From the IMG/VR virus record IMGVR_UViG_2802429234_000006: a stretch of DNA of 15,576 bases. One strand, given 5' to 3'. This DNA is from a virus (lineage: Duplodnaviria; Heunggongvirae; Uroviricota; Caudoviricetes). Below the pieces are notes generated by a model. It worked only from the letters and a program-made list of their open reading frames with translations. It was not told the origin of the DNA and did no database searches. Shown here in pieces: positions 1 through 14,208 of the stretch (its first letter is position 1; every line of letters starts with the position of its first letter). The translations under genes were made by a program, and so were the position numbers.

Positions 1-1371
1 TTACCAATTAAAAATATAATCTTTTATTTTAAGATACATATCAACTTTCCCAGACCATTTTGATGCACTCTCTTTCATATTTTCAATAACATCATCAATC
101 AGTAAGTCTCTTCCTTTTACAATCAATTGATCATCATCAATACCCTCTGGTGCAAATTCATATATGTGCATGCTTAGATTAGACTTCTGAGTATGAGGGA
201 ATGAATCTTTTTCCACACACATACCAATAAACTCATTAATAGATAGTTCTTTCTGTTTACACATCATAAGTAATAATTCGAACTCATCAATTGTTATATA
301 GTAAATTCTTTTTAGATCAATGGGGATACTATGATATTTTTCAGATAACTCAGTTGATAGATCAGGGTTAATTAAATCCTGCACAACCATTGCATTTGAT
401 ATATGATGATCCCGATGCACCACAATTAACATTGAATCTTTCGAAGATGGTTTTCTCATCTCTATTTTATTTAAATTAAAAGCACATTCCTGACCTTGAT
501 AAATCCCTTTAATAAAACTCTTATTCAACCTTTCCTTTAGCAACTGAGCATTATTAGATGTTTTAACGAACTTTGCAGGCTCTATTGCCTTCGAGTCAAC
601 ATAAACTATTGAATCTCCTTCTGAAATAACAAAATCTACGGACTTGCAATTTTTTATTGCATTATCACTATAAATCTTCTTAACCTCCCTTTCAGTCTTA
701 AAGTTATAATTGTACTTATCAAGAAAGCGAGAAATATAAAGTTCCATCGTCTTACCAAATTTTTCTTTATAAGATTCCTTATAGACCTGCTTGAACAATT
801 CTGGAACTAGGTTGACAAACCCTGACTTCATGATTCTTTTGCATAATATCACTACACCATCGCCATCTAAAAACATTGGTTTACTGAGGAATGGTGTATC
901 TTCATAATACTCAGCGGTAATGTTTTTATCCAATTTATATGGGGCAATAAAATCTCTTACACCATCAATTTTTAAGCATGTTAATTCCAAAAATCTTTTC
1001 ACTTGTTCCGGACCAAATATCGGAACCAAGTTTATTATCAAGTGTTTAAATGGAATAACCTCTGATTCTACATCAGGATTAATACATGAAATAGCGGTAA
1101 AATAACATGCCATTTTGTAATAGCTTTCCAAATGTAAACCAGTACATTCTAAAAACTTATCTTTATAATATAATTCATCATTCAAGCAATACCAAATATA
1201 CTGTCTTGTTAATGAATTGGCATTAAATTTATCAGTTGATTGATAAAGCAACTGATTTATCACCATTCGTCTAAGGCTTAGCATAACTTTATCATCAACG
1301 ATTAAATTAGATGCTTCTAGTTGCAAGTTATAGATTAAGTTGATAATATCAATAAAATCATTTTTACTCAT
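1..1371 (-). CDS. Hypothetical protein, AT-rich cargo gene (456 aa from the ATG at 1371; the track ORF extends to 1434 only through non-ATG codons). Possible PD-(D/E)xK-like nuclease signature.
   Basis: Long uninterrupted ORF in a markedly AT-rich block. The ATG at 1369-1371 overlaps the TGA stop of the upstream small ORF (ATGA), suggesting translational coupling. No strong SD precedes any candidate ATG. The motif DFVISEGD-SIVYVDSK is encoded at about 589..636. No Walker A motif seen. Confidence 0.6.
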   Translation of the reverse strand: MSKNDFIDIINLIYNLQLEASNLIVDDKVMLSLRRMVINQLLYQSTDKFNANSLTRQYIWYCLNDELYYKDKFLECTGLHLESYYKMACYFTAISCINPDVESEVIPFKHLIINLVPIFGPEQVKRFLELTCLKIDGVRDFIAPYKLDKNITAEYYEDTPFLSKPMFLDGDGVVILCKRIMKSGFVNLVPELFKQVYKESYKEKFGKTMELYISRFLDKYNYNFKTEREVKKIYSDNAIKNCKSVDFVISEGDSIVYVDSKAIEPAKFVKTSNNAQLLKERLNKSFIKGIYQGQECAFNLNKIEMRKPSSKDSMLIVVHRDHHISNAMVVQDLINPDLSTELSEKYHSIPIDLKRIYYITIDEFELLLMMCKQKELSINEFIGMCVEKDSFPHTQKSNLSMHIYEFAPEGIDDDQLIVKGRDLLIDDVIENMKESASKWSGKVDMYLKIKDYIFNW

Positions 1372-1598
1372 TTCTTTTGCAGGCTTTTTTCCTTCATGCA
1401 AAACTTCCATTTCATTGCCAGATAGCAACACCAAGGGAAATTGGAAACAATACCCACCTCGACATCCCTTACTTTTTGGAAGTGTTCATAAAAATTTCTC
1501 AAAAAAGAAACATCACTAAAATATGACAATCTTTTCTTAATCGCATCAACTTTTATAGAATATGACATTGGTGTCATTGTTTTTATTGCCACGCTCAT
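1368..1598 (-). CDS. Small hypothetical protein (76 aa), first gene of a putative two-gene operon
   Basis: ATG at 1598 preceded by AAAAGG about 5 nt upstream. Its stop overlaps the ATG of the large downstream ORF. AT-rich promoter-like DNA lies upstream (1599-1680). Confidence 0.4.
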   Translation of the reverse strand: MSVAIKTMTPMSYSIKVDAIKKRLSYFSDVSFLRNFYEHFQKVRDVEVGIVSNFPWCCYLAMKWKFCMKEKSLQKK

Positions 1599-2511: not shown

Positions 2512-3039
2512 TCATTGATGGTCTGATTTTTCCCATTCAGCCAGGGCGTTTAGCCCGGCTTCACTCCATGATTCCAGTTCATCGGGATAATCACCTGCAA
2601 CATAGCAGAGTTCGCAACGCAGCATACGAATTGCCAGCCTGGCATTACCCCGCAAATTGTATTGTTCAAAGTAATGCTGCCCGTCGCAATCCTCAAGGCA
2701 GATAGCACCATCATCAAGAAATTGCACTTCCCAGCCTAATTCCCCGGCTGCATCCAGCACACGCTGCTGTATGCCCTCGTCCGTTGCTGGCGCAGGAATT
2801 TTACCGTCTCTGGCCTTAACTGCTTTCCAGAACTCGCCCCACGTCATTTCCAGCGTTCTTTCTGGCCACATTTCAGAAACTGCGTCTTTTCCCTGTGCTG
2901 GTGGGCTGTTCCGCTGCTCTGTCGCTTCCACATCGATTTTTTTACCGGACATGATCACTTCGCCTTTCTCGATCCAGTCGTAAACTGTCTGGCGGCTTAC
3001 GCCTTTGTATTTGGCGTATTCGGCTTTACTCATCAACAT
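2512..3039 (-). CDS. Helix-turn-helix DNA-binding protein (175 aa); N-terminus resembles the winged-HTH of excisionase / AlpA / lambda Nu1 (TerS N-terminal) type proteins
   Basis: ATG at 3039 with GAGGTG 6 nt upstream (the track start at 3048 is a GTG). N-terminal MSKAEYAKYKGVSRQTVYDWIEKGEV fits the pattern of Nu1-like NKKQLADIFGASIRTIQNWQEQG. Acidic C-terminal half. Family assignment is from recollection, not a search. Confidence 0.65.
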   Translation of the reverse strand: MLMSKAEYAKYKGVSRQTVYDWIEKGEVIMSGKKIDVEATEQRNSPPAQGKDAVSEMWPERTLEMTWGEFWKAVKARDGKIPAPATDEGIQQRVLDAAGELGWEVQFLDDGAICLEDCDGQHYFEQYNLRGNARLAIRMLRCELCYVAGDYPDELESWSEAGLNALAEWEKSDHQ

Positions 3040-3138
3040 GTAGCTCACCTCATGCGTATACGATAAAAAATAATTTCATGCGGAAAGGGAATGCGTTGTG
3101 GGTATGGAGGAAAGGGGCAATAACCGCCCCTTACTGAT

Positions 3139-3411
3139 TCAGTTGCGCCAGGATGGCTGGCTAAGCGTGGTTTTCATTACATCATTGACGACCTGTTTTA
3201 CGATTTCTGTGTTGGCAGTCGTGCTTTCAACATCAACAAAGCCATAATCGCCAATTTCCACCGTCAGGGATTCCAGTTTCTTCCCTAGAGCATCAGGCAA
3301 CTCTCCACTGAACCGGTGCTGAAGATTTTCCACCAGCAACGCCCTGAATGCCTCGCTGTTCTCTTTTTTCTGCCATAGCTGGCGTTTATCCACTCTGATA
3401 TTTAATTTCAC
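3139..3411 (-). CDS. Hypothetical protein (90 aa), second gene of a small coupled operon
   Basis: Its ATG at 3411 overlaps the stop of the upstream 55-aa ORF (ATGA). A weak hairpin (GGGGC...GCCCC, about 3107-3125) lies downstream. Confidence 0.5.
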   Translation of the reverse strand: MKLNIRVDKRQLWQKKENSEAFRALLVENLQHRFSGELPDALGKKLESLTVEIGDYGFVDVESTTANTEIVKQVVNDVMKTTLSQPSWRN

Positions 3412-3575
3412 AGTCTCACCTCTTTAAGTGCCTTATCCATCAGTTGCCGGGCGATAACATGAATCGACGGTGCCACACCAAGCACAGATTTCTGACGCTC
3501 TTCGTCCTGGATGCGTTGCAGGGCTTCGATCTGGCTCCGGGAAAGTAAAACTGGCTTTACTCCGTGATTTTTCAT
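3408..3575 (-). CDS. Small protein (55 aa), possible DNA-binding regulator
   Basis: ATG at 3575 with AGGGAG 6-7 nt upstream; the track ORF upstream of this ATG is Cys/Tyr-rich and probably not coding. Palindromic operator-like sites lie 20-75 bp upstream. Confidence 0.5.
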   Translation of the reverse strand: MKNHGVKPVLLSRSQIEALQRIQDEERQKSVLGVAPSIHVIARQLMDKALKEVRL

Positions 3576-3594
3576 GATGCTCCCTTCTGAATGA

Positions 3595-3650
3595 CAATAA
3601 TTGCAATTATTGCACAAAATGAAATGATACCAACGATAATTGCAATAAAT
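3595..3650. promoter_or_regulatory. Two operator-like palindromes sharing an ATTGCAAT core: perfect 18-bp CAATAATTGCAATTATTG (3595-3612) and imperfect ATAATTGCAATAAAT (3636-3650)
   Basis: Perfect dyad symmetry read directly from the sequence, positioned in the presumed promoter of the 3575->3139 operon, centres about 39 bp apart. Confidence 0.4.
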
Positions 3651-3853
3651 GAAACAAAAAGCATCAATAAACCAACCTTCAGCACTAAATGCTCTGATTT
3701 TTCTGCAAAAGTATGGCAGATGTTGCTGCATGCAAACATAAAGGAAATAGCAGAAGAAACAGCGGGGAGTGAAAAGGGGAAGTTTTTATAAATACACGAT
3801 TGTCGCCCCACTGCAGGTTAACAGCCACAAGCTCCATGATAATAACTTGTTAA

Positions 3854-4177
3854 TTATTTCATCAGATTTTTCATTACTTGCGCGATTGAGTACACAAGCA
3901 AAAACTCGGCAGCCGCAAGAGTATAAAAAACATAAATTCGCTTAGCCCACCGACGATGAAAGAACTCCTCAGCATGGCCGGATGTTCGAGATACAAGCCA
4001 TGCACCTACTGCACACAGAGCAGGTGAAATGAGCACAGTTATAAACCAGATTGTGATGCCCATCCCATGCCTACTGATAATAGCCATTGGTATTGCAAAA
4101 ATGAATGTTAGAGCAGCATTAGCTAATAGAATATCTTTTAAAGTATTTTCAATTAGTTTTTCTAGATTATCTTTCAT
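3854..4177 (-). CDS. Small integral membrane protein (107 aa, 2-3 predicted transmembrane helices)
   Basis: ATG at 4177 with a G-rich SD (GGGGGG) 5 nt upstream. Hydrophobic stretches FIFAIPMAIISRHGMGITIWFITVLISPALCAVGAWLV and VFYTLAAAEFLLVYSI. AT-rich. Confidence 0.55.
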   Translation of the reverse strand: MKDNLEKLIENTLKDILLANAALTFIFAIPMAIISRHGMGITIWFITVLISPALCAVGAWLVSRTSGHAEEFFHRRWAKRIYVFYTLAAAEFLLVYSIAQVMKNLMK

Positions 4178-4206
4178 CTAATCCCCCCGTTGAACATTAA
4201 TATATA

Positions 4207-4229
4207 AAAGCCCCTTACTAAGGGGCTTT
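4207..4229 (-). terminator. Intrinsic terminator: 10-bp perfect stem (AAAGCCCCTT / AAGGGGCTTT) with a 3-nt loop, followed by a U-rich tract on the minus-strand transcript
   Basis: Directly downstream of the lipoprotein gene stop (4241); the minus-strand RNA continues as UUAUAUAUU. Confidence 0.55.
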
Positions 4230-4240
4230 GCGCGGATTGT

Positions 4241-5383
4241 TTAAAGGGAACTTTTTTTCGCCCCATCAATTTCTGCCTGACAAATTTCGTCATTTGTAAA
4301 TGAGTACTGCAGATAGACATATCCCTGAGTGGAATTGTTCGCTCTGGCCTCAATAGAGATAGTATCAATATTGTTTTTTAATGGTATTTCTTTTGTTCCC
4401 TTCCATGTGGCAGATAAGAAGCGTTCTTTTTTGTTTAGCCCCCTCATCCAGTCCTGAGGCTCTTTCCAAATTGAACCAGCCAGCAAAAAGTCTGTAGTAT
4501 CAGCCTTTCCATACAGAGAACTTAAAGAATTTCTCAATTCTTCAAACTTGGATTTAAGAGCCAATCCATAGCTATCAGTATCAATATTTTTTCCTAAAGC
4601 CCGTATTTGACATAAACCAGCTTTCGGGGAGATCAACAAACCATACATTTCAAAATCTGCGTTTTGCTTCGGTAATTTATCAGAAGTATACAGATTTACA
4701 CTGTCTGGTAGTGGCTTGAGCTTAGCACCGATCATATCTTCGATGTTTTTCTGTGTAAGACCGGCTTCTAAGCCGAACGGACCATCCGCTGGCGGGAGTA
4801 AAGGAAGTTGCTCTTGGGAATTTTTGGCTGTTACTTCCGTTTCAGTACTGTTTTTTGCGTCATTATCTTGTACTGATGCCAGCTTAACTTCAGCGAGGCC
4901 ATACTTGGCTGTGAGGTACTTTTGCTGCAACATTGCCATGGTCTGCTCTTCAGTGGCAACAGTAGATAATTTTAGTACCTTTATCAGACCACCGCTATAC
5001 TGACGAGCATCAGCTTTGGCTTCGTTGATTTTTGCATCTAAGCTGTCAATTTCAGTTTTAATTGAAGCCGCAAGCTCAGGATCAGGTTTAACTCCAGATA
5101 CAACAACATCAATTTTAGCACCTGATTCAATAGCATTAATACGCTGTTCCAAAATCGCTTTATTAGTTCCTAATATTTCCAGTCTTGCTGTTGTCAGATT
5201 TTTTATCAACCCACCAGAAAACTGCTGGTCAACTTCCTTAGCTGCTGATATTTCACCTTCCGTTTGCGACAGTTCAACTTTAAGAGCCGCTACTTCCTGT
5301 TTCTGTTCTGGAGTTAACTCTTCTGGCCCACATCCGGTTAACATTACTATACCGACTAATGTTGCAATTAAAGTTTTATTCAT
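4241..5383 (-). CDS. Lipoprotein (380 aa) with an internal tandem repeat and a coiled-coil-like N-terminal half
   Basis: Signal peptide with lipobox MNKTLIATLVGIVMLTGC. Internal repeat DQQFSGGLIKNL / ARQYSGGLIKVL. Long ORF followed by a strong terminator. Confidence 0.7.
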   Translation of the reverse strand: MNKTLIATLVGIVMLTGCGPEELTPEQKQEVAALKVELSQTEGEISAAKEVDQQFSGGLIKNLTTARLEILGTNKAILEQRINAIESGAKIDVVVSGVKPDPELAASIKTEIDSLDAKINEAKADARQYSGGLIKVLKLSTVATEEQTMAMLQQKYLTAKYGLAEVKLASVQDNDAKNSTETEVTAKNSQEQLPLLPPADGPFGLEAGLTQKNIEDMIGAKLKPLPDSVNLYTSDKLPKQNADFEMYGLLISPKAGLCQIRALGKNIDTDSYGLALKSKFEELRNSLSSLYGKADTTDFLLAGSIWKEPQDWMRGLNKKERFLSATWKGTKEIPLKNNIDTISIEARANNSTQGYVYLQYSFTNDEICQAEIDGAKKSSL

Positions 5384-10629: not shown

Positions 10630-11478
10630 TTACACATGGCTGTTTTCCTCCATGCGACGGGCTAACCAACGCTGCGAAAGGCGAATTAATTCAGCTTTCC
10701 GCTGGTGGTAGTCCTGGCCTAACTCAATCAGCGTGATATTGCTCTGCTCAAGGTAAGAAAGGTGCTCAAGCTGCAACGTGCTCATGTGGTCGCGTGGTTC
10801 GCCTGTGATGCCGTTCGCCAGTGCCCACTGTTTTGCAGTCATGCCACCCAGCACGATACGCGCCAGCATATTGGCTTCCGTGGTGTAATGGTGCTGTAGA
10901 GTGTTTTTACCCAGTTCAGCCCGGTACGCCTCCAGCGCGGCACACATTGGCTTAAAGTAGCTGGCAACTGTGATACGGGCTTTCAGTTCCCGGCGTAACG
11001 CTGCGGAACGTACAGGCGCAACCTTGTGTAGCTCTTCCTCGCATTTGATGAAGTACTGACGAACGGCGCGCCCCTGTTCGGTGCGTTCGACCATCGCCAG
11101 TTCTTTCGCCATGTTCGTGGAGATCAAATAGTCTTCACTGCGGCGATCACCGCCGCGCTTTGTTGTCCAATCAGAATCAAACTGTTCAATATTTACACTT
11201 TGGTTCCCCCGTTTCGGGGAATCAAAGTACAAATTTTCTACAACTTCAAAATCCACGCCATTTTTAAATCCGTACTCATCAATACGTCCTTTAATCCAGG
11301 TAGTGAAATCACGGCCTACCCCGAGCGCCTTATGCAACGCTCTGGCGCTAACAATATTGGTTTCACGCCCGCCAATAACGCCGGAAATAACCGGGATAAT
11401 TTCACCAAAATTTTGCAGATTCTGGTTTTCAGGTCGAATGAAGCCCTGCCCCTGTACGGGCGTTTTTCGCAGTTTCAT
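10630..11478 (-). CDS. Phage antirepressor-like protein (282 aa; AntA/Rha/KilA-type regulatory domains)
   Basis: ATG at 11478 with GGAG 7 nt upstream. Segments ARALHKALGVGRDFTTWIKGRI and ISTNMAKELAMVERTEQGRAVRQYFIKCEEEL resemble conserved blocks of phage antirepressor / Rha-family proteins as I recall them. Confidence 0.65.
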   Translation of the reverse strand: MKLRKTPVQGQGFIRPENQNLQNFGEIIPVISGVIGGRETNIVSARALHKALGVGRDFTTWIKGRIDEYGFKNGVDFEVVENLYFDSPKRGNQSVNIEQFDSDWTTKRGGDRRSEDYLISTNMAKELAMVERTEQGRAVRQYFIKCEEELHKVAPVRSAALRRELKARITVASYFKPMCAALEAYRAELGKNTLQHHYTTEANMLARIVLGGMTAKQWALANGITGEPRDHMSTLQLEHLSYLEQSNITLIELGQDYHQRKAELIRLSQRWLARRMEENSHV

Positions 11479-11555: not shown

Positions 11556-11753
11556 TCAGGTAGCTGTTCCGCGTGATTCCGCAATACGCTGATTAATCCA
11601 CTCGTCAATTTCACTCTCAACGAAAGCAATCGCTCGCGAGCCAATTTTTACAGGTTTAGGAAAACGCCCTTGGGCAATGAGTTTATAGATCCATGCCCTG
11701 CCATAGCCTGTACGGCGCATGGTTTCTGGCATACGAATTAAAGATTGTGACAT
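11556..11753 (-). CDS. alpA: AlpA-family transcriptional regulator / excisionase-like HTH protein (65 aa)
   Basis: ATG at 11753 with GGGAG upstream (the track start at 11822 is a GTG and runs through the operators). Sequence MSQSLIRMPETMRRTGYGRAWIYKLIAQGRFPKPVKIGSRAIAFVESEIDEWI is characteristic of AlpA/Xis-type proteins. Confidence 0.8.
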   Translation of the reverse strand: MSQSLIRMPETMRRTGYGRAWIYKLIAQGRFPKPVKIGSRAIAFVESEIDEWINQRIAESRGTAT

Positions 11754-11793: not shown

Positions 11794-11820
11794 ATTGAAG
11801 CAGGTAAGACATTGGATATC

Positions 11821-11855
11821 ACCGCAATTGCGGTGAATGATACCGCAATTGCGGT
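11821..11855. promoter_or_regulatory. Tandem pair of perfect 14-bp palindromes ACCGCAATTGCGGT (operator-like), centres 21 bp apart
   Basis: Identical copies at 11821-11834 and 11842-11855, each perfectly self-complementary, in the interval between the 251-aa gene stop and the alpA start. Confidence 0.5.
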
Positions 11856-11867
11856 ATAGGACTAGAA

Positions 11868-14132: not shown

Positions 14133-14208
14133 TGGTGCCGATAATAGGAGTCGAACCTACGACCTTCGCATTACGAATGCGCTGCTCTACCAACTGAGCT
14201 ATATCGGC
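14133..14208 (-). tRNA. thrW: tRNA-Thr (anticodon CGU), thrW-type; integration target of the element
   Basis: Minus-strand sequence GCCGATATAGCTCAGTTGGTAGAGCAGCGCATTCGTAATGCGAAGGTCGTAGGTTCGACTCCTATTATCGGCACCA folds as a canonical cloverleaf: 7-bp acceptor stem, D-arm GCTC/GAGC, anticodon loop TTCGTAA, T-loop TTCGACT, encoded CCA. Confidence 0.92.

Follow-up and report, generated by a model that had tools for sequence, protein, structure and literature searches.

A putative ribbon-helix-helix regulator and a divergent DinI-like protein at the head of the post-replication operon of an EcCIMP1-type satellite island

The locus lies in a 15,576-nt stretch of DNA (hereafter, the window) and comprises a 55-aa gene, a 90-aa gene and a 175-178-aa gene, all on the minus strand, together with a predicted promoter and repeated sequence elements upstream of them (Table 1). 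The 55-aa and 90-aa genes overlap by 4 nt. The original prediction described the two as coupled by an ATGA; the 4-nt overlap is real, but its letters are GTGA, with the GTG start of the 90-aa gene placed over the TGA stop of its neighbor, and the 90-aa gene appears to be translationally coupled to the 55-aa gene through it. The Shine-Dalgarno sequence of the 55-aa gene lines up with AGGAGG of the relatives. Against the Citrobacter orthologues, the 55-aa gene had a pN/pS of 0.13-0.19 and the 90-aa gene one of 0.05-0.08. Both are real genes under purifying selection; the protein conservation proposed as a check of the small frames was found for these two and not for an overlapping hydrophobic frame. 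In RefSeq E. coli genomes, both proteins are "hypothetical". Citrobacter and Serratia share the synteny of the 55-90-175 trio, and the 175-aa HTH gene is probably the third gene of the module; the 90-nt gap before it contains a hairpin.

Table 1. Positions of genes, reading frames and sequence elements at the locus, in window coordinates.
Feature	Position	Strand	Remarks
175-178-aa protein gene	2512-3039	-	N-terminal excisionase/TerS-Nu1-type HTH
90-aa gene	3139-3411	-	GTG start; putative divergent DinI-like protein; Shine-Dalgarno GAGGTGA at 3416-3422
55-aa gene	3408-3575	-	ATG start; putative orphan-family ribbon-helix-helix (RHH) protein; first gene of the island's post-replication operon
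Third frame	3572-3811	-	Met-initiated part 3572-3664, 30 codons, reads MLFVSFIAIIVGIISFCAIIAIIVIQKGAS; judged non-gene
Shine-Dalgarno GAAGGGAG of the 55-aa gene	3580-3587	-	Read from the sequence; 5 nt upstream of ATG
66-aa ORF	3591-3791	+	PGAP call (WP_024189479.1, strain CI5); judged non-gene, the same motifs read in antisense
Perfect 18-bp palindrome CAATAATTGCAATTATTG	3595-3612	.	Candidate proximal operator; overlaps the predicted -10 and start-site region
Predicted sigma-70 promoter	3606-3633	-	-35 TTGGTA (3628-3633), 16-nt spacer, TG-extended -10 AATAAT (3606-3611); consensus scan
Proximal family-conserved box TTTCATTTTGTGCAATAAT	3606-3624	-	TTTCA at -49, TGCAA at -39 from ATG
Imperfect palindrome copy CGATAATTGCAATAAATG	3634-3651		39 bp from the palindrome, centre to centre
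Distal family-conserved box TTTCATTTATTGCAATTAT	3636-3654	-	TTTCA at -79, TGCAA at -69; contains the imperfect palindrome copy

The window belongs to the EcCIMP1 type of phage-inducible chromosomal islands (PICIs) and is integrated at tRNA-Thr beside proA. The tRNA-Thr gene and the att core TCCTATTATC, as described for EcCIMP1, were found in it, and the annotated twin locus carries an integrase, an AlpA-type HTH protein, AntA/B, an Icd-like protein, a P4-type primase, ProQ/FinO and PerC. In keeping with PICIs, the window has its integrase by the tRNA att site, an AlpA-type regulator and its own primase/replicon, lacks virion structural and lysis genes, and falls in the size range of ~15-20 kb. 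EcCIMP1 and the window have a common integration site, att core and backbone (int, AlpA, AntA/B, P4-type primase, PerC), and the post-primase operon of EcCIMP1 begins with a 53-aa homologue of the RHH gene, as that of the window does with the 55-aa gene (Pick, Stadel and Raivio 2025, PMC11773190). The cargo differs: DUF2824, ejection proteins and a lytic transglycosylase in EcCIMP1, and the DinI-like and HTH proteins in the window. Helper-phage-dependent excision, replication and transfer have been proven by experiment only for EcCIMP1 with phage Kapi1 (PMC11773190). In the searchable text of that report, the only experimental paper on EcCIMP1-like islands, the post-replication module is called uninterpretable, and a text search found discussion of neither the small RHH gene nor the LexA box described below. 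EcCIMP1-like islands are common; of 5426 complete E. coli genomes, 132-165 had the 55/90-aa module, among them O104:H4 outbreak strains and strain 55989. The region gave no megablast match in phage and plasmid collections, and the 55-aa and 90-aa proteins gave no tblastn match in 50,697 phage genomes.

In the AF2 model of the 55-aa protein (monomer, pLDDT 83), two helices come after an N-terminal strand, and the whole can be superposed on solved RHH protomers; the RHH fold covers residues 6-54. Based on the model, we consider it an RHH protein of a previously unnamed family with a putative DNA-binding role. Pfam gave no match to the protein or to 37 family members, and no curated RHH family was linked to them by sequence profile. 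PHROGs, NCBIfam and PADLOC gave no meaningful match to the protein and its family. Sequence and profile searches of the PDB returned chance matches only, none of them an RHH protein, and a Foldseek search of the PDB with the model found nothing. We must also note that the putative ribbon, VKPVLLS, is more hydrophobic than is usual in a strand that reads DNA, and that the monomer model is without ribbon pairing. A TumA-type antirepressor was considered too, as PSP3 has a tumA-tumB (DinI) pair, and was rejected at an hhalign probability of 0.2%.

The family of the 90-aa protein aligned at full length with the DinI family profile (DinI/TumB) in hhalign, with 82.8% probability and E of 9e-6, compared to 0.5-0.6% for control pairs. 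The protein has the beta-alpha-beta-beta-alpha order of the DinI fold, and DinI was the best fold match, followed by tautomerase/MIF. The signal was obtained only with the family profile; hhalign against the single E. coli DinI sequence was not significant, and Pfam DinI (PF06183) matched none of the 13 members of the family. Relative to DinI, 12 residues are inserted after helix 1 of the protein. The C-terminal helix (residues 66-90) is approximately neutral, with 2 acidic and 3 basic residues (net +1), and is not the acidic helix that serves DinI as a DNA mimic on RecA; residues 56-81 of DinI contain 8 acidic and 3 basic residues (net -5). We regard the 90-aa protein as a probable distant, divergent relative of DinI. 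For the protein and its family, Pfam, PHROGs, NCBIfam and PADLOC yielded no meaningful match, and sequence and profile searches of the PDB with the protein yielded chance matches only; a plant LRR-like motif (HRFsGELPdalG) that emerged from the PDB search was regarded as coincidence. The 90-aa gene is limited to a subset of the RHH-carrying islands, where it is always accompanied by the 175-aa HTH gene. The product of the latter matched Pfam HTH_17 (1e-4), the PHROG terminase small subunit (1e-6) and TIGR01764 (7e-5).

Upstream of the 55-aa gene, promoter matches in the region as a whole were no more frequent than in shuffles by the consensus scan. The promoter architecture is conserved across genera, and the relatives have a perfect TATAAT at the position equivalent to AATAAT of the window. 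The perfect 18-bp palindrome and the related imperfect copy noted originally are both present. The palindrome consists of two tandem copies of a nearly self-complementary 9-mer, each with TGCAAT, and E. coli QML220601 has this 9-bp unit in 4.4 copies. Dinucleotide shuffling of the 278-nt intergenic region produced a perfect palindrome with arms of at least 9 in 9 of 5000 trials; when the whole window was shuffled, the figure was 68 of 1000. The right arm is conserved neither in Citrobacter nor in E. coli DE17, even though the RHH protein of DE17 is 98% identical. With an RHH protein that is conserved and a perfect palindrome that is not, the 18-mer as such cannot be the recognition unit, and we rejected it as a conserved operator. 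Across the family, the elements that recur are two TTTCA-N5-TGCAA boxes with a spacing of 30 bp. TGCAA occurs 42 times (9.3 +/- 2.8 expected) in 26 of the 29 upstream regions, fixed at -39 and -69. The full box is found at only those two places in the 15.6-kb window and is absent from the alpA and int promoters, which bear another palindrome. A conserved box overlies the -35/spacer region in all relatives, and the -35 is weak. The folding of the leader RNA is not unusual (z -1.6).

Canonical LexA boxes directly follow TATAAT in EcCIMP1, Serratia, Tatumella, Lonsdalea and Pantoea; the box of the Serratia orthologous operon reads CTGTATGAACATACAG. Since a LexA box is present at the same promoter in EcCIMP1 and in the Serratia orthologue of the trio, the ancestral module would have been SOS-wired. 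No LexA box was found in the window's own leader or upstream of its operon, unlike in EcCIMP1, and the lineage of the window appears to have lost it.

The RHH gene keeps its operon-leader position in the related islands, whereas the genes downstream vary and abut tightly. The gene that follows it belongs to at least seven unrelated clusters, and encodes tape-measure-like proteins, ejection proteins, or proteins of 191, ~360 or 600 aa. The RHH gene is also the only one that always accompanies the two-box promoter, as both the cargo and the upstream 380-aa and 107-aa genes are variable. The best model, to which we assign a probability of roughly 60%, is that the 55-aa gene is the Arc/CopG-style autoregulated leader of the post-replication (helper-exploitation) operon, with its product acting at TGCAAT units. 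RHH dimers would bind TGCAAT-containing units at the operon's own promoter, namely the two family-conserved boxes and one lineage-specific 9-bp unit, and this extra unit would create the perfect palindrome over the -10 and the start site. By binding, the protein would repress its own operon in a feedback loop, in the manner of Arc at P22 Pant and CopG at Pcr. The operon would run on into the coupled 90-aa DinI-like gene and probably the 175-aa HTH gene, and its location after the replication genes would be that in which other satellites place helper-exploitation genes (packaging, interference). The analysis shows that the genes are real, assigns their folds and establishes the synteny, the conserved motifs and the lack of a LexA box; which protein binds the boxes, whether it represses, and what the cargo does are inferred. 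A small DNA-binding protein under palindromic autoregulation had been proposed at the outset; with the RHH fold and repeats that overlap the predicted promoter, that layout is plausible at the level of the fold, but not with the unconserved 18-mer as its operator.

The weak -35 under the conserved box would suit an activator site equally well. We consider it unlikely, though deserving of attention, that the TTTCA-N5-TGCAA boxes are bound by another regulator (for example the island AlpA, a late activator of the helper phage, or a host factor) that switches the operon on at helper induction, while the RHH protein acts elsewhere or activates. AlpA is a known positive master regulator of Gram-negative PICIs, the box is situated exactly over the -35/spacer in every relative, and the right arm of the palindrome changes while the RHH protein does not. 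However, no gene other than that of the RHH protein is constant beside this promoter, and the box occurs nowhere else in the island, the alpA and int promoters having a palindrome of their own. Moreover, an RHH protein whose gene leads an operon is, classically, an autorepressor.

It is quite doubtful that the RHH protein is instead a DNA-processing accessory factor (of the TraM/TraY type at oriT, or of the RHH centromere-binding type), marking a packaging or handling site made of the boxes. Its gene opens a module located where satellites keep packaging functions, and the copy number of the unit differs between strains in an iteron-like manner. The boxes, however, lie in every relative precisely on the -35/-10/Shine-Dalgarno promoter-leader, in many cases with a LexA box, which is a transcriptional layout. 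No evidence of a pac or cos site emerged in the window either: the sole match to a lambda/phi80-type cosN has 2 mismatches, lies inside the primase gene and was ascribed to chance.

A type II toxin-antitoxin pair, with the 55-aa protein as the RHH antitoxin, the 90-aa protein as the toxin and palindromic autoregulation, would agree with two small genes overlapping by 4 nt, with the RHH fold of the first product and with the promoter repeats. We nevertheless find this layout, suggested in the original prediction, very improbable. The pairing is not conserved, since in the relatives the gene coupled to that of the RHH protein encodes a tape-measure-like protein, an ejection protein or other cargo. 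The RHH fold fills almost the entire 55-aa chain, which leaves no toxin-neutralising tail, and the 90-aa gene always occurs with a third gene, that of the 175-aa HTH protein. The 90-aa protein is DinI-like and has no known toxin fold. It had already been remarked that neither protein resembles a known toxin family, and indeed Pfam, PADLOC and NCBIfam returned no toxin match.

The third frame does end, as first noticed, in a TGA stop that overlaps the ATG of the 55-aa gene (ATGA). Its product had been likened to a type I toxin-like membrane peptide, with the caveat that it may be an artefact of the AT-rich palindromes, and the caveat proved apt. The pN/pS of this ORF is 1.17-1.25, compared to 0.05-0.19 in the neighboring genes, with radical changes (I to N, L to P, G to V). 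In E. coli DE17, 258E and STEC346 and in C. freundii, the hydrophobic reading lies in another frame relative to the ATG, is startless or contains stops; for other genera, the reading is that of -10 region DNA (GCAATTATAAT gives AIII), interrupted by stops. The predicted promoter falls within the ORF, and an Rfam search of 3000-4300 found no antisense or toxin-associated RNA, only a chance snoRNA match (E 0.6). We take the frame to be a by-product of the AT-rich promoter, i.e. a reading of conserved promoter DNA, and not a gene. Translation of the frame into a genuine type I toxin-like or leader membrane peptide, tied to the 55-aa gene via the ATGA, is the least credible of the readings: E. coli, E. 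ruysiae and one Citrobacter island keep its ATG, equal length and overlap, and the 9-bp expansion of QML220601 leaves it in frame, but a 9-bp unit leaves any frame open, and the pN/pS, the shifted frames and stops, the promoter inside it, the lack of an Rfam match and the ordinary RNA structure all stand against it. The 66-aa RefSeq CDS on the plus strand is likely spurious as well; in Citrobacter L022, Citrobacter L024 and E. coli DE17 it is cut short or its frame is shifted, and it has no family matches in Pfam or PHROGs.

The RHH proteins Arc, CopG and omega have 45-71 aa, and each is encoded first in the operon that it represses. One of the closest layouts to our model is Pant-arc-ant of P22 immI, although Arc and the 55-aa protein have no detectable sequence similarity. 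The Arc operator spans 21 bp, whereas the candidate operator in the window consists of TGCAAT units and two boxes 30 bp apart, and the P22 cargo is Ant in place of the DinI-like and HTH proteins. CopG (pMV158) and omega (pSM19035) hold the same position as the 55-aa gene at the start of a repressed operon. Omega binds short repeats of variable number and orientation, a situation similar to that of the 9-bp unit with its 2 versus 4.4 copies. These two regulators, however, belong to plasmid copy-control or partition systems, with units of 13 bp (CopG) and 7 bp (omega), and the omega operon carries a true toxin-antitoxin (epsilon/zeta), which the window operon does not.

DinI homologues are known from LexA-controlled phage operons, namely the Gifsy dinI-antirepressor operon, 186 tum and PSP3 tumA/tumB (PMC3121763). 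In Gifsy dinI-gfoA/gftA-irsA, 186 tum and PSP3 tumA-tumB, small proteins and DinI-family proteins are adjacent, and a LexA box directly follows the -10. The Serratia trio orthologue and EcCIMP1 share this layout of the LexA box, unlike the window, and TumA of PSP3 is unrelated to the 55-aa protein. SaPI operon I, cited as Ubeda et al. 2007, is the LexA-repressed packaging/interference operon of staphylococcal PICIs. As would be the case for the operon studied here, it is a helper-exploitation operon after the replication module, and it is SOS-wired via LexA, whereas in our case the LexA box is found only in the relatives of the window; SaPIs are Gram-positive islands, with genes unrelated to those of the window. 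We know of no RHH leader gene described in SaPI operon I.

What is new here is a conserved entry point to the post-replication module, formed by a putative small RHH regulator and defined candidate operator boxes, along with the LexA box at the same promoter in relatives and the recognition of the second gene as DinI-like. These findings bear on how satellites time the exploitation of the helper phage, and they dispose of two misleading ideas, that of a toxin-antitoxin pair and that of a type I toxin. More speculatively, and with a low probability as a whole, the orphan RHH protein and the two-box promoter, with its LexA box in many relatives, might act as master switch of the operon for helper exploitation across a large group of enterobacterial satellites whose annotation is still poor, as a Gram-negative counterpart of SaPI operon I. 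The coupled DinI-like protein of the Escherichia/Citrobacter/Serratia branch might then act on RecA filaments, tuning SOS and helper-prophage induction for the satellite, and the lineage of the window, in which an extra RHH site would have taken the place of the LexA box, might have been uncoupled from SOS.

The 175-aa protein was also compared with Rpp of EcCICFT073-type PICIs. We rejected it as an Rpp homologue: phmmer and family-profile searches gave no match to the deposited Rpp structures, nor to any other PDB chain beyond generic HTH similarity (E ~0.3), and the window has no lambda-type cosN. Rpp and the 175-aa protein nonetheless have in common a TerS(Nu1)/excisionase-type N-terminal HTH (PMC6739421), and the 175-aa gene is located late in the island, just before the accessory/defence cargo, as is that of Rpp (Fillol-Salom et al. 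2019, PMC6739421).

Judged by its sequence, the element in the window is an EcCIMP1-type PICI (phage-inducible chromosomal island), since it shares the tRNA-Thr site and the att core reported for EcCIMP1, an island that phage Kapi1 mobilises (Pick et al. 2025, PMC11773190). The region had no counterpart in phage or plasmid collections and was found at 98% identity in 132 of 5426 complete E. coli chromosomes, including O104:H4 and strain 55989. The annotated twin locus of strain CI5 comprises proA, tRNA-Thr, an integrase, an AlpA-type HTH gene, AntA/B, Icd-like, P4-type primase, ProQ/FinO and PerC genes; past PerC lie genes for hypothetical proteins of 380, 107, 55, 90 and 175 aa and then accessory genes. 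In EcCIMP1, the module downstream of the primase was uninterpretable by similarity to characterised PICIs (PMC11773190). Several E. coli relatives lack the 380- and 107-aa genes, and there perC is directly followed by the 55-aa gene.

Every gene in the 55-/90-aa part of the window lies on the minus strand. The sequence features of the original prediction had been correctly observed (both palindromes, the coupling of the 55- and 90-aa ORFs by overlap, and a third frame with an ATGA overlap on the 55-aa start), except that the overlap between the two ORFs reads GTGA and not ATGA. Compared with two orthologous Citrobacter loci, the 55-aa gene had a pN/pS of 0.13-0.19 and the 90-aa gene one of 0.05-0.08; both genes are real.

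Features of the window discussed in the text
Feature	Position	Strand	Remarks
477-aa ORF reaching the window edge	1-1434	-	GapS1-family antiphage protein; NCBIfam NF047931, E 1e-114
175-178-aa protein	2512-3039/3048		excisionase/TerS-Nu1-type HTH
90-aa ORF	3139-3411	-	GTG start over the TGA stop of the 55-aa ORF
55-aa ORF	3408-3575	-	ATG start; Shine-Dalgarno GAAGGGAG upstream
Hydrophobic third frame	3572-3664	-	reads MLFVSFIAII...QKGAS
66-aa CDS called by RefSeq/PGAP	3591-3791	+	WP_024189479.1; WP_255402546.1 in the repeat-expanded strain
Perfect 18-bp palindrome	3595-3612		CAATAATTGCAATTATTG
Related palindrome copy	3634-3651		15/18
107-aa multi-pass membrane protein	3854-4177	-	between PerC and the 55-aa gene
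380-aa predicted lipoprotein	4241-5383	-	signal sequence + Cys; 60% identity to a Pantoea island protein
Perfect 18-bp palindrome	11819-11836		TCACCGCAATTGCGGTGA
Perfect 18-bp palindrome	11840-11857		ATACCGCAATTGCGGTAT; 21 bp from the preceding one
tRNA-Thr(CGU)	14133-14208		contains the att core TCCTATTATC

We compared 18 genome loci (Pantoea, Tatumella, Rouxiella, Rosenbergiella, Klebsiella, Enterobacter, Lonsdalea, Erwinia, Rahnella and Pectobacterium, among others), Citrobacter and Serratia contigs, four divergent E. coli islands and EcCIMP1. In all of them, the 55-aa homologue followed primase/PerC and headed a co-directional cluster. The next gene started a few bases from its stop, and the identity of that gene changed between islands. 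Nine loci carried a 108-aa protein and a tape-measure-like protein of ~1000-1200 aa, a tenth (L005) the tape-measure-like protein alone, and EcCIMP1 DUF2824, ejection proteins and a lytic transglycosylase; elsewhere, unrelated proteins of 191, ~360, 600 or 844 aa were found. The 90-aa gene occupied this place only in Escherichia, Citrobacter and Serratia, where the trio of 55-, 90- and ~175-aa genes is conserved. The 55-aa gene is thus an operon leader by position and, with a changing gene downstream, behaves as a regulator heading a variable-cargo operon rather than as an antitoxin.

The 580-1200-aa proteins of many related islands have tape-measure domains (Pfam TMP_3, Phage_HK97_TLTM) and are accompanied by the 108-aa protein (L003 8512-11922 and equivalents in L005, L009, L010, L012, L014-L016, L019 and L020); at the same position, EcCIMP1 has P22-type ejection proteins. 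It thus seems that satellites of the EcCIMP1 class bring along DNA-delivery proteins of their own, suited to the type of helper.

Searches of Pfam, PHROGs, NCBIfam, PADLOC and PDB sequences gave no match to the 55-aa protein, also when a family of 37 members was used, and an exhaustive HMMER search yielded only 59 cluster representatives, all of ~55-65 aa. Homologues of the 55- and 90-aa proteins were absent among 50,697 phage genomes. In the AlphaFold model (pLDDT 83), an extended N-terminus precedes two helices; Foldseek returned no match to it. The family pattern, K-P-V-L-L ... S-x-x-G-x-A-P-S/T-I-H-x-I-A-R-x-L ... A-L with invariant R43, is compatible with helix B of a ribbon-helix-helix (RHH) protein as well. 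An RHH fold is well supported; the protein would bind DNA, and together with its relatives it makes up a new, unnamed RHH family.

The 130 nt preceding the 55-aa gene were aligned for 25 loci and share one architecture, with TTTCA-N5-TGCAA(T) boxes at -79/-69 and -49/-39 relative to the start codon, followed by TATAAT and, 2 nt on, CTGTAT. TGCAA occurred 42 times against 9.3 ± 2.8 expected, at fixed positions in 26 of 29 regions, in loci that share descent and are not independent samples, although their flanks have diverged past alignment. The motifs are thus conserved at the 55-aa promoter, and the full box was not found elsewhere in the window. A consensus scan of the window placed an extended -10 (TGcAATAAT) and a -35 (TTGGTA) here; in this layout, the -10 and start site lie under the palindrome, and the distal box borders the -35. 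Dinucleotide shuffling of the intergenic region gave a perfect palindrome with arms of at least 9 in 9 of 5000 trials, and shuffling of the window did so in 68 of 1000. The 18-mer is made up of two copies, in tandem, of a 9-mer, CAATAATTG, that is itself almost self-complementary; an extra unit after the proximal box creates the perfect palindrome, whose right arm is missing in Citrobacter and E. coli DE17. E. coli QML220601 has 4.4 tandem copies (L029 896-935) versus two in the window, each with the TGcAATAAT extended -10-like motif, and the array may act as a contingency repeat, prone to slippage, at the promoter.

We propose that the RHH protein would bind the TGCAAT units as dimers, perhaps cooperatively across both boxes, which are in phase, and the additional 9-bp unit, and would exert negative feedback on its own operon. 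Arc (at Pant), CopG (at Pcr) and omega (on its heptads) exert feedback of this kind. In the main rival reading, AlpA or a helper factor would use the boxes as activator sites; the -35 of the window is weak and overlapped by a conserved box, as that reading would have it. On the autoregulatory reading, the 55-aa gene would be an operon leader of a familiar mode in a poorly understood satellite class. The third gene would be co-transcribed with the pair, and the functions of the DinI-like (see below) and HTH proteins in the operon are likewise putative. Of the regulator-effector or toxin-antitoxin pair originally predicted, the DNA-binding regulator holds at the level of fold; a toxin-antitoxin pair is unsupported, as the RHH gene leads different cargo from island to island.

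The CTGTAT element is a canonical LexA box (CTG-N10-CAG) in EcCIMP1 (AACTGTTGTTTTATACAGTT), Serratia (CTGTATGAACATACAG), Tatumella, Lonsdalea and one Pantoea, lies one mismatch from it in six loci, and is one base short in eight (e.g., CTGTATAAATATCAG versus CTGTATAAATATACAG of PSP3). The canonical boxes directly follow the -10 of the post-primase operon in EcCIMP1 (~10828-10920, minus strand) and Serratia (~3790-3830). The element is absent in the Escherichia/Citrobacter clade holding the window, whose lineage lost it; a text search of the EcCIMP1 paper found no mention of LexA (PMC11773190). Ancestrally, LexA would also have acted on the promoter, its box being replaced in the window lineage by another RHH-type unit. 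With ancestral LexA, the module would be the Gram-negative counterpart of SaPI operon I, which LexA controls, and its DinI-like branch recalls the LexA-controlled Gifsy dinI-antirepressor operons and the tum and tumA-tumB modules of 186 and PSP3 (PMC3121763). The RHH leader gives a way into the EcCIMP1-type late operon and its link to SOS.

The 90-aa family (~20 members in Escherichia, Citrobacter, Serratia, Providencia and Yersinia) matched no curated family. Its model is beta-alpha-beta-beta-alpha (pLDDT 76, only moderately reliable given a shallow alignment). With hhalign, a single DinI sequence gave no signal; an alignment of E. coli DinI and seven phage DinI/TumB proteins gave 82.8% probability (E 9e-6, 75 columns, both proteins end to end) against 0.5-0.6% for unrelated profile pairs. 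The protein is therefore rather likely a divergent DinI-like protein. DinI acts on RecA through its acidic C-terminal helix, which the 90-aa protein lacks; it also has a 12-residue insertion after helix 1. This insertion is the HRFsGELPDalGkkL segment, invariant within residues 27-46 and close to the plant LRR repeat consensus, with PDB matches to receptor kinases (E 3e-5 to 2e-3); it is a single repeat-length stretch, and the resemblance was treated as coincidence.

The hydrophobic third frame, once likened to a type I toxin-like membrane peptide, was rejected as a gene: pN/pS over 90 nt of leader was 1.17-1.25 against the Citrobacter loci, the frame is not kept, the predicted promoter falls inside it, and the region had no Rfam match or unusual RNA structure. 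As originally suspected, the reading is an artefact, a by-product of conserved DNA motifs (TTTCATTTATTGCAAT gives (V)SFIAI and GCAATTATAAT AIII). In E. coli DE17, with a 98% identical RHH protein, it lacks a start and lies in another frame relative to the ATG; in E. coli 258E, STEC346, C. freundii and other genera it is also in another frame, often interrupted by stops. By the same comparison, the remaining leader frames on both strands had no convincing coding signature. The 66-aa RefSeq CDS, an antisense reading of these motifs truncated in Citrobacter and DE17, is very probably spurious.

The 175-178-aa protein matched neither Rpp nor other solved proteins. In the 90-nt gap between its gene and the 90-aa gene (3049-3138) lies a GC-rich hairpin, AAGGGGC-N7-GCCCCTT; it has no T-run and was not called in a terminator scan. 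The 477-aa ORF exceeds the curated NF047931 cut-off, so the island has a defence gene in the accessory region past the 175-aa gene; relatives carry AAA+ plus S8 peptidase, DUF6680, SEC-C, Schlafen/AlbA_2 or SecB-like genes at this position. Perfect 9+9 palindromes number three in 15.6 kb, far over expectation (at least one in only 68 of 1000 shuffles). The other two, with a core unlike that of the first, lie in the gap that separates the AlpA-type gene (ATG at 11752) from the 251-aa gene and are probably an operator pair of the alpA promoter.
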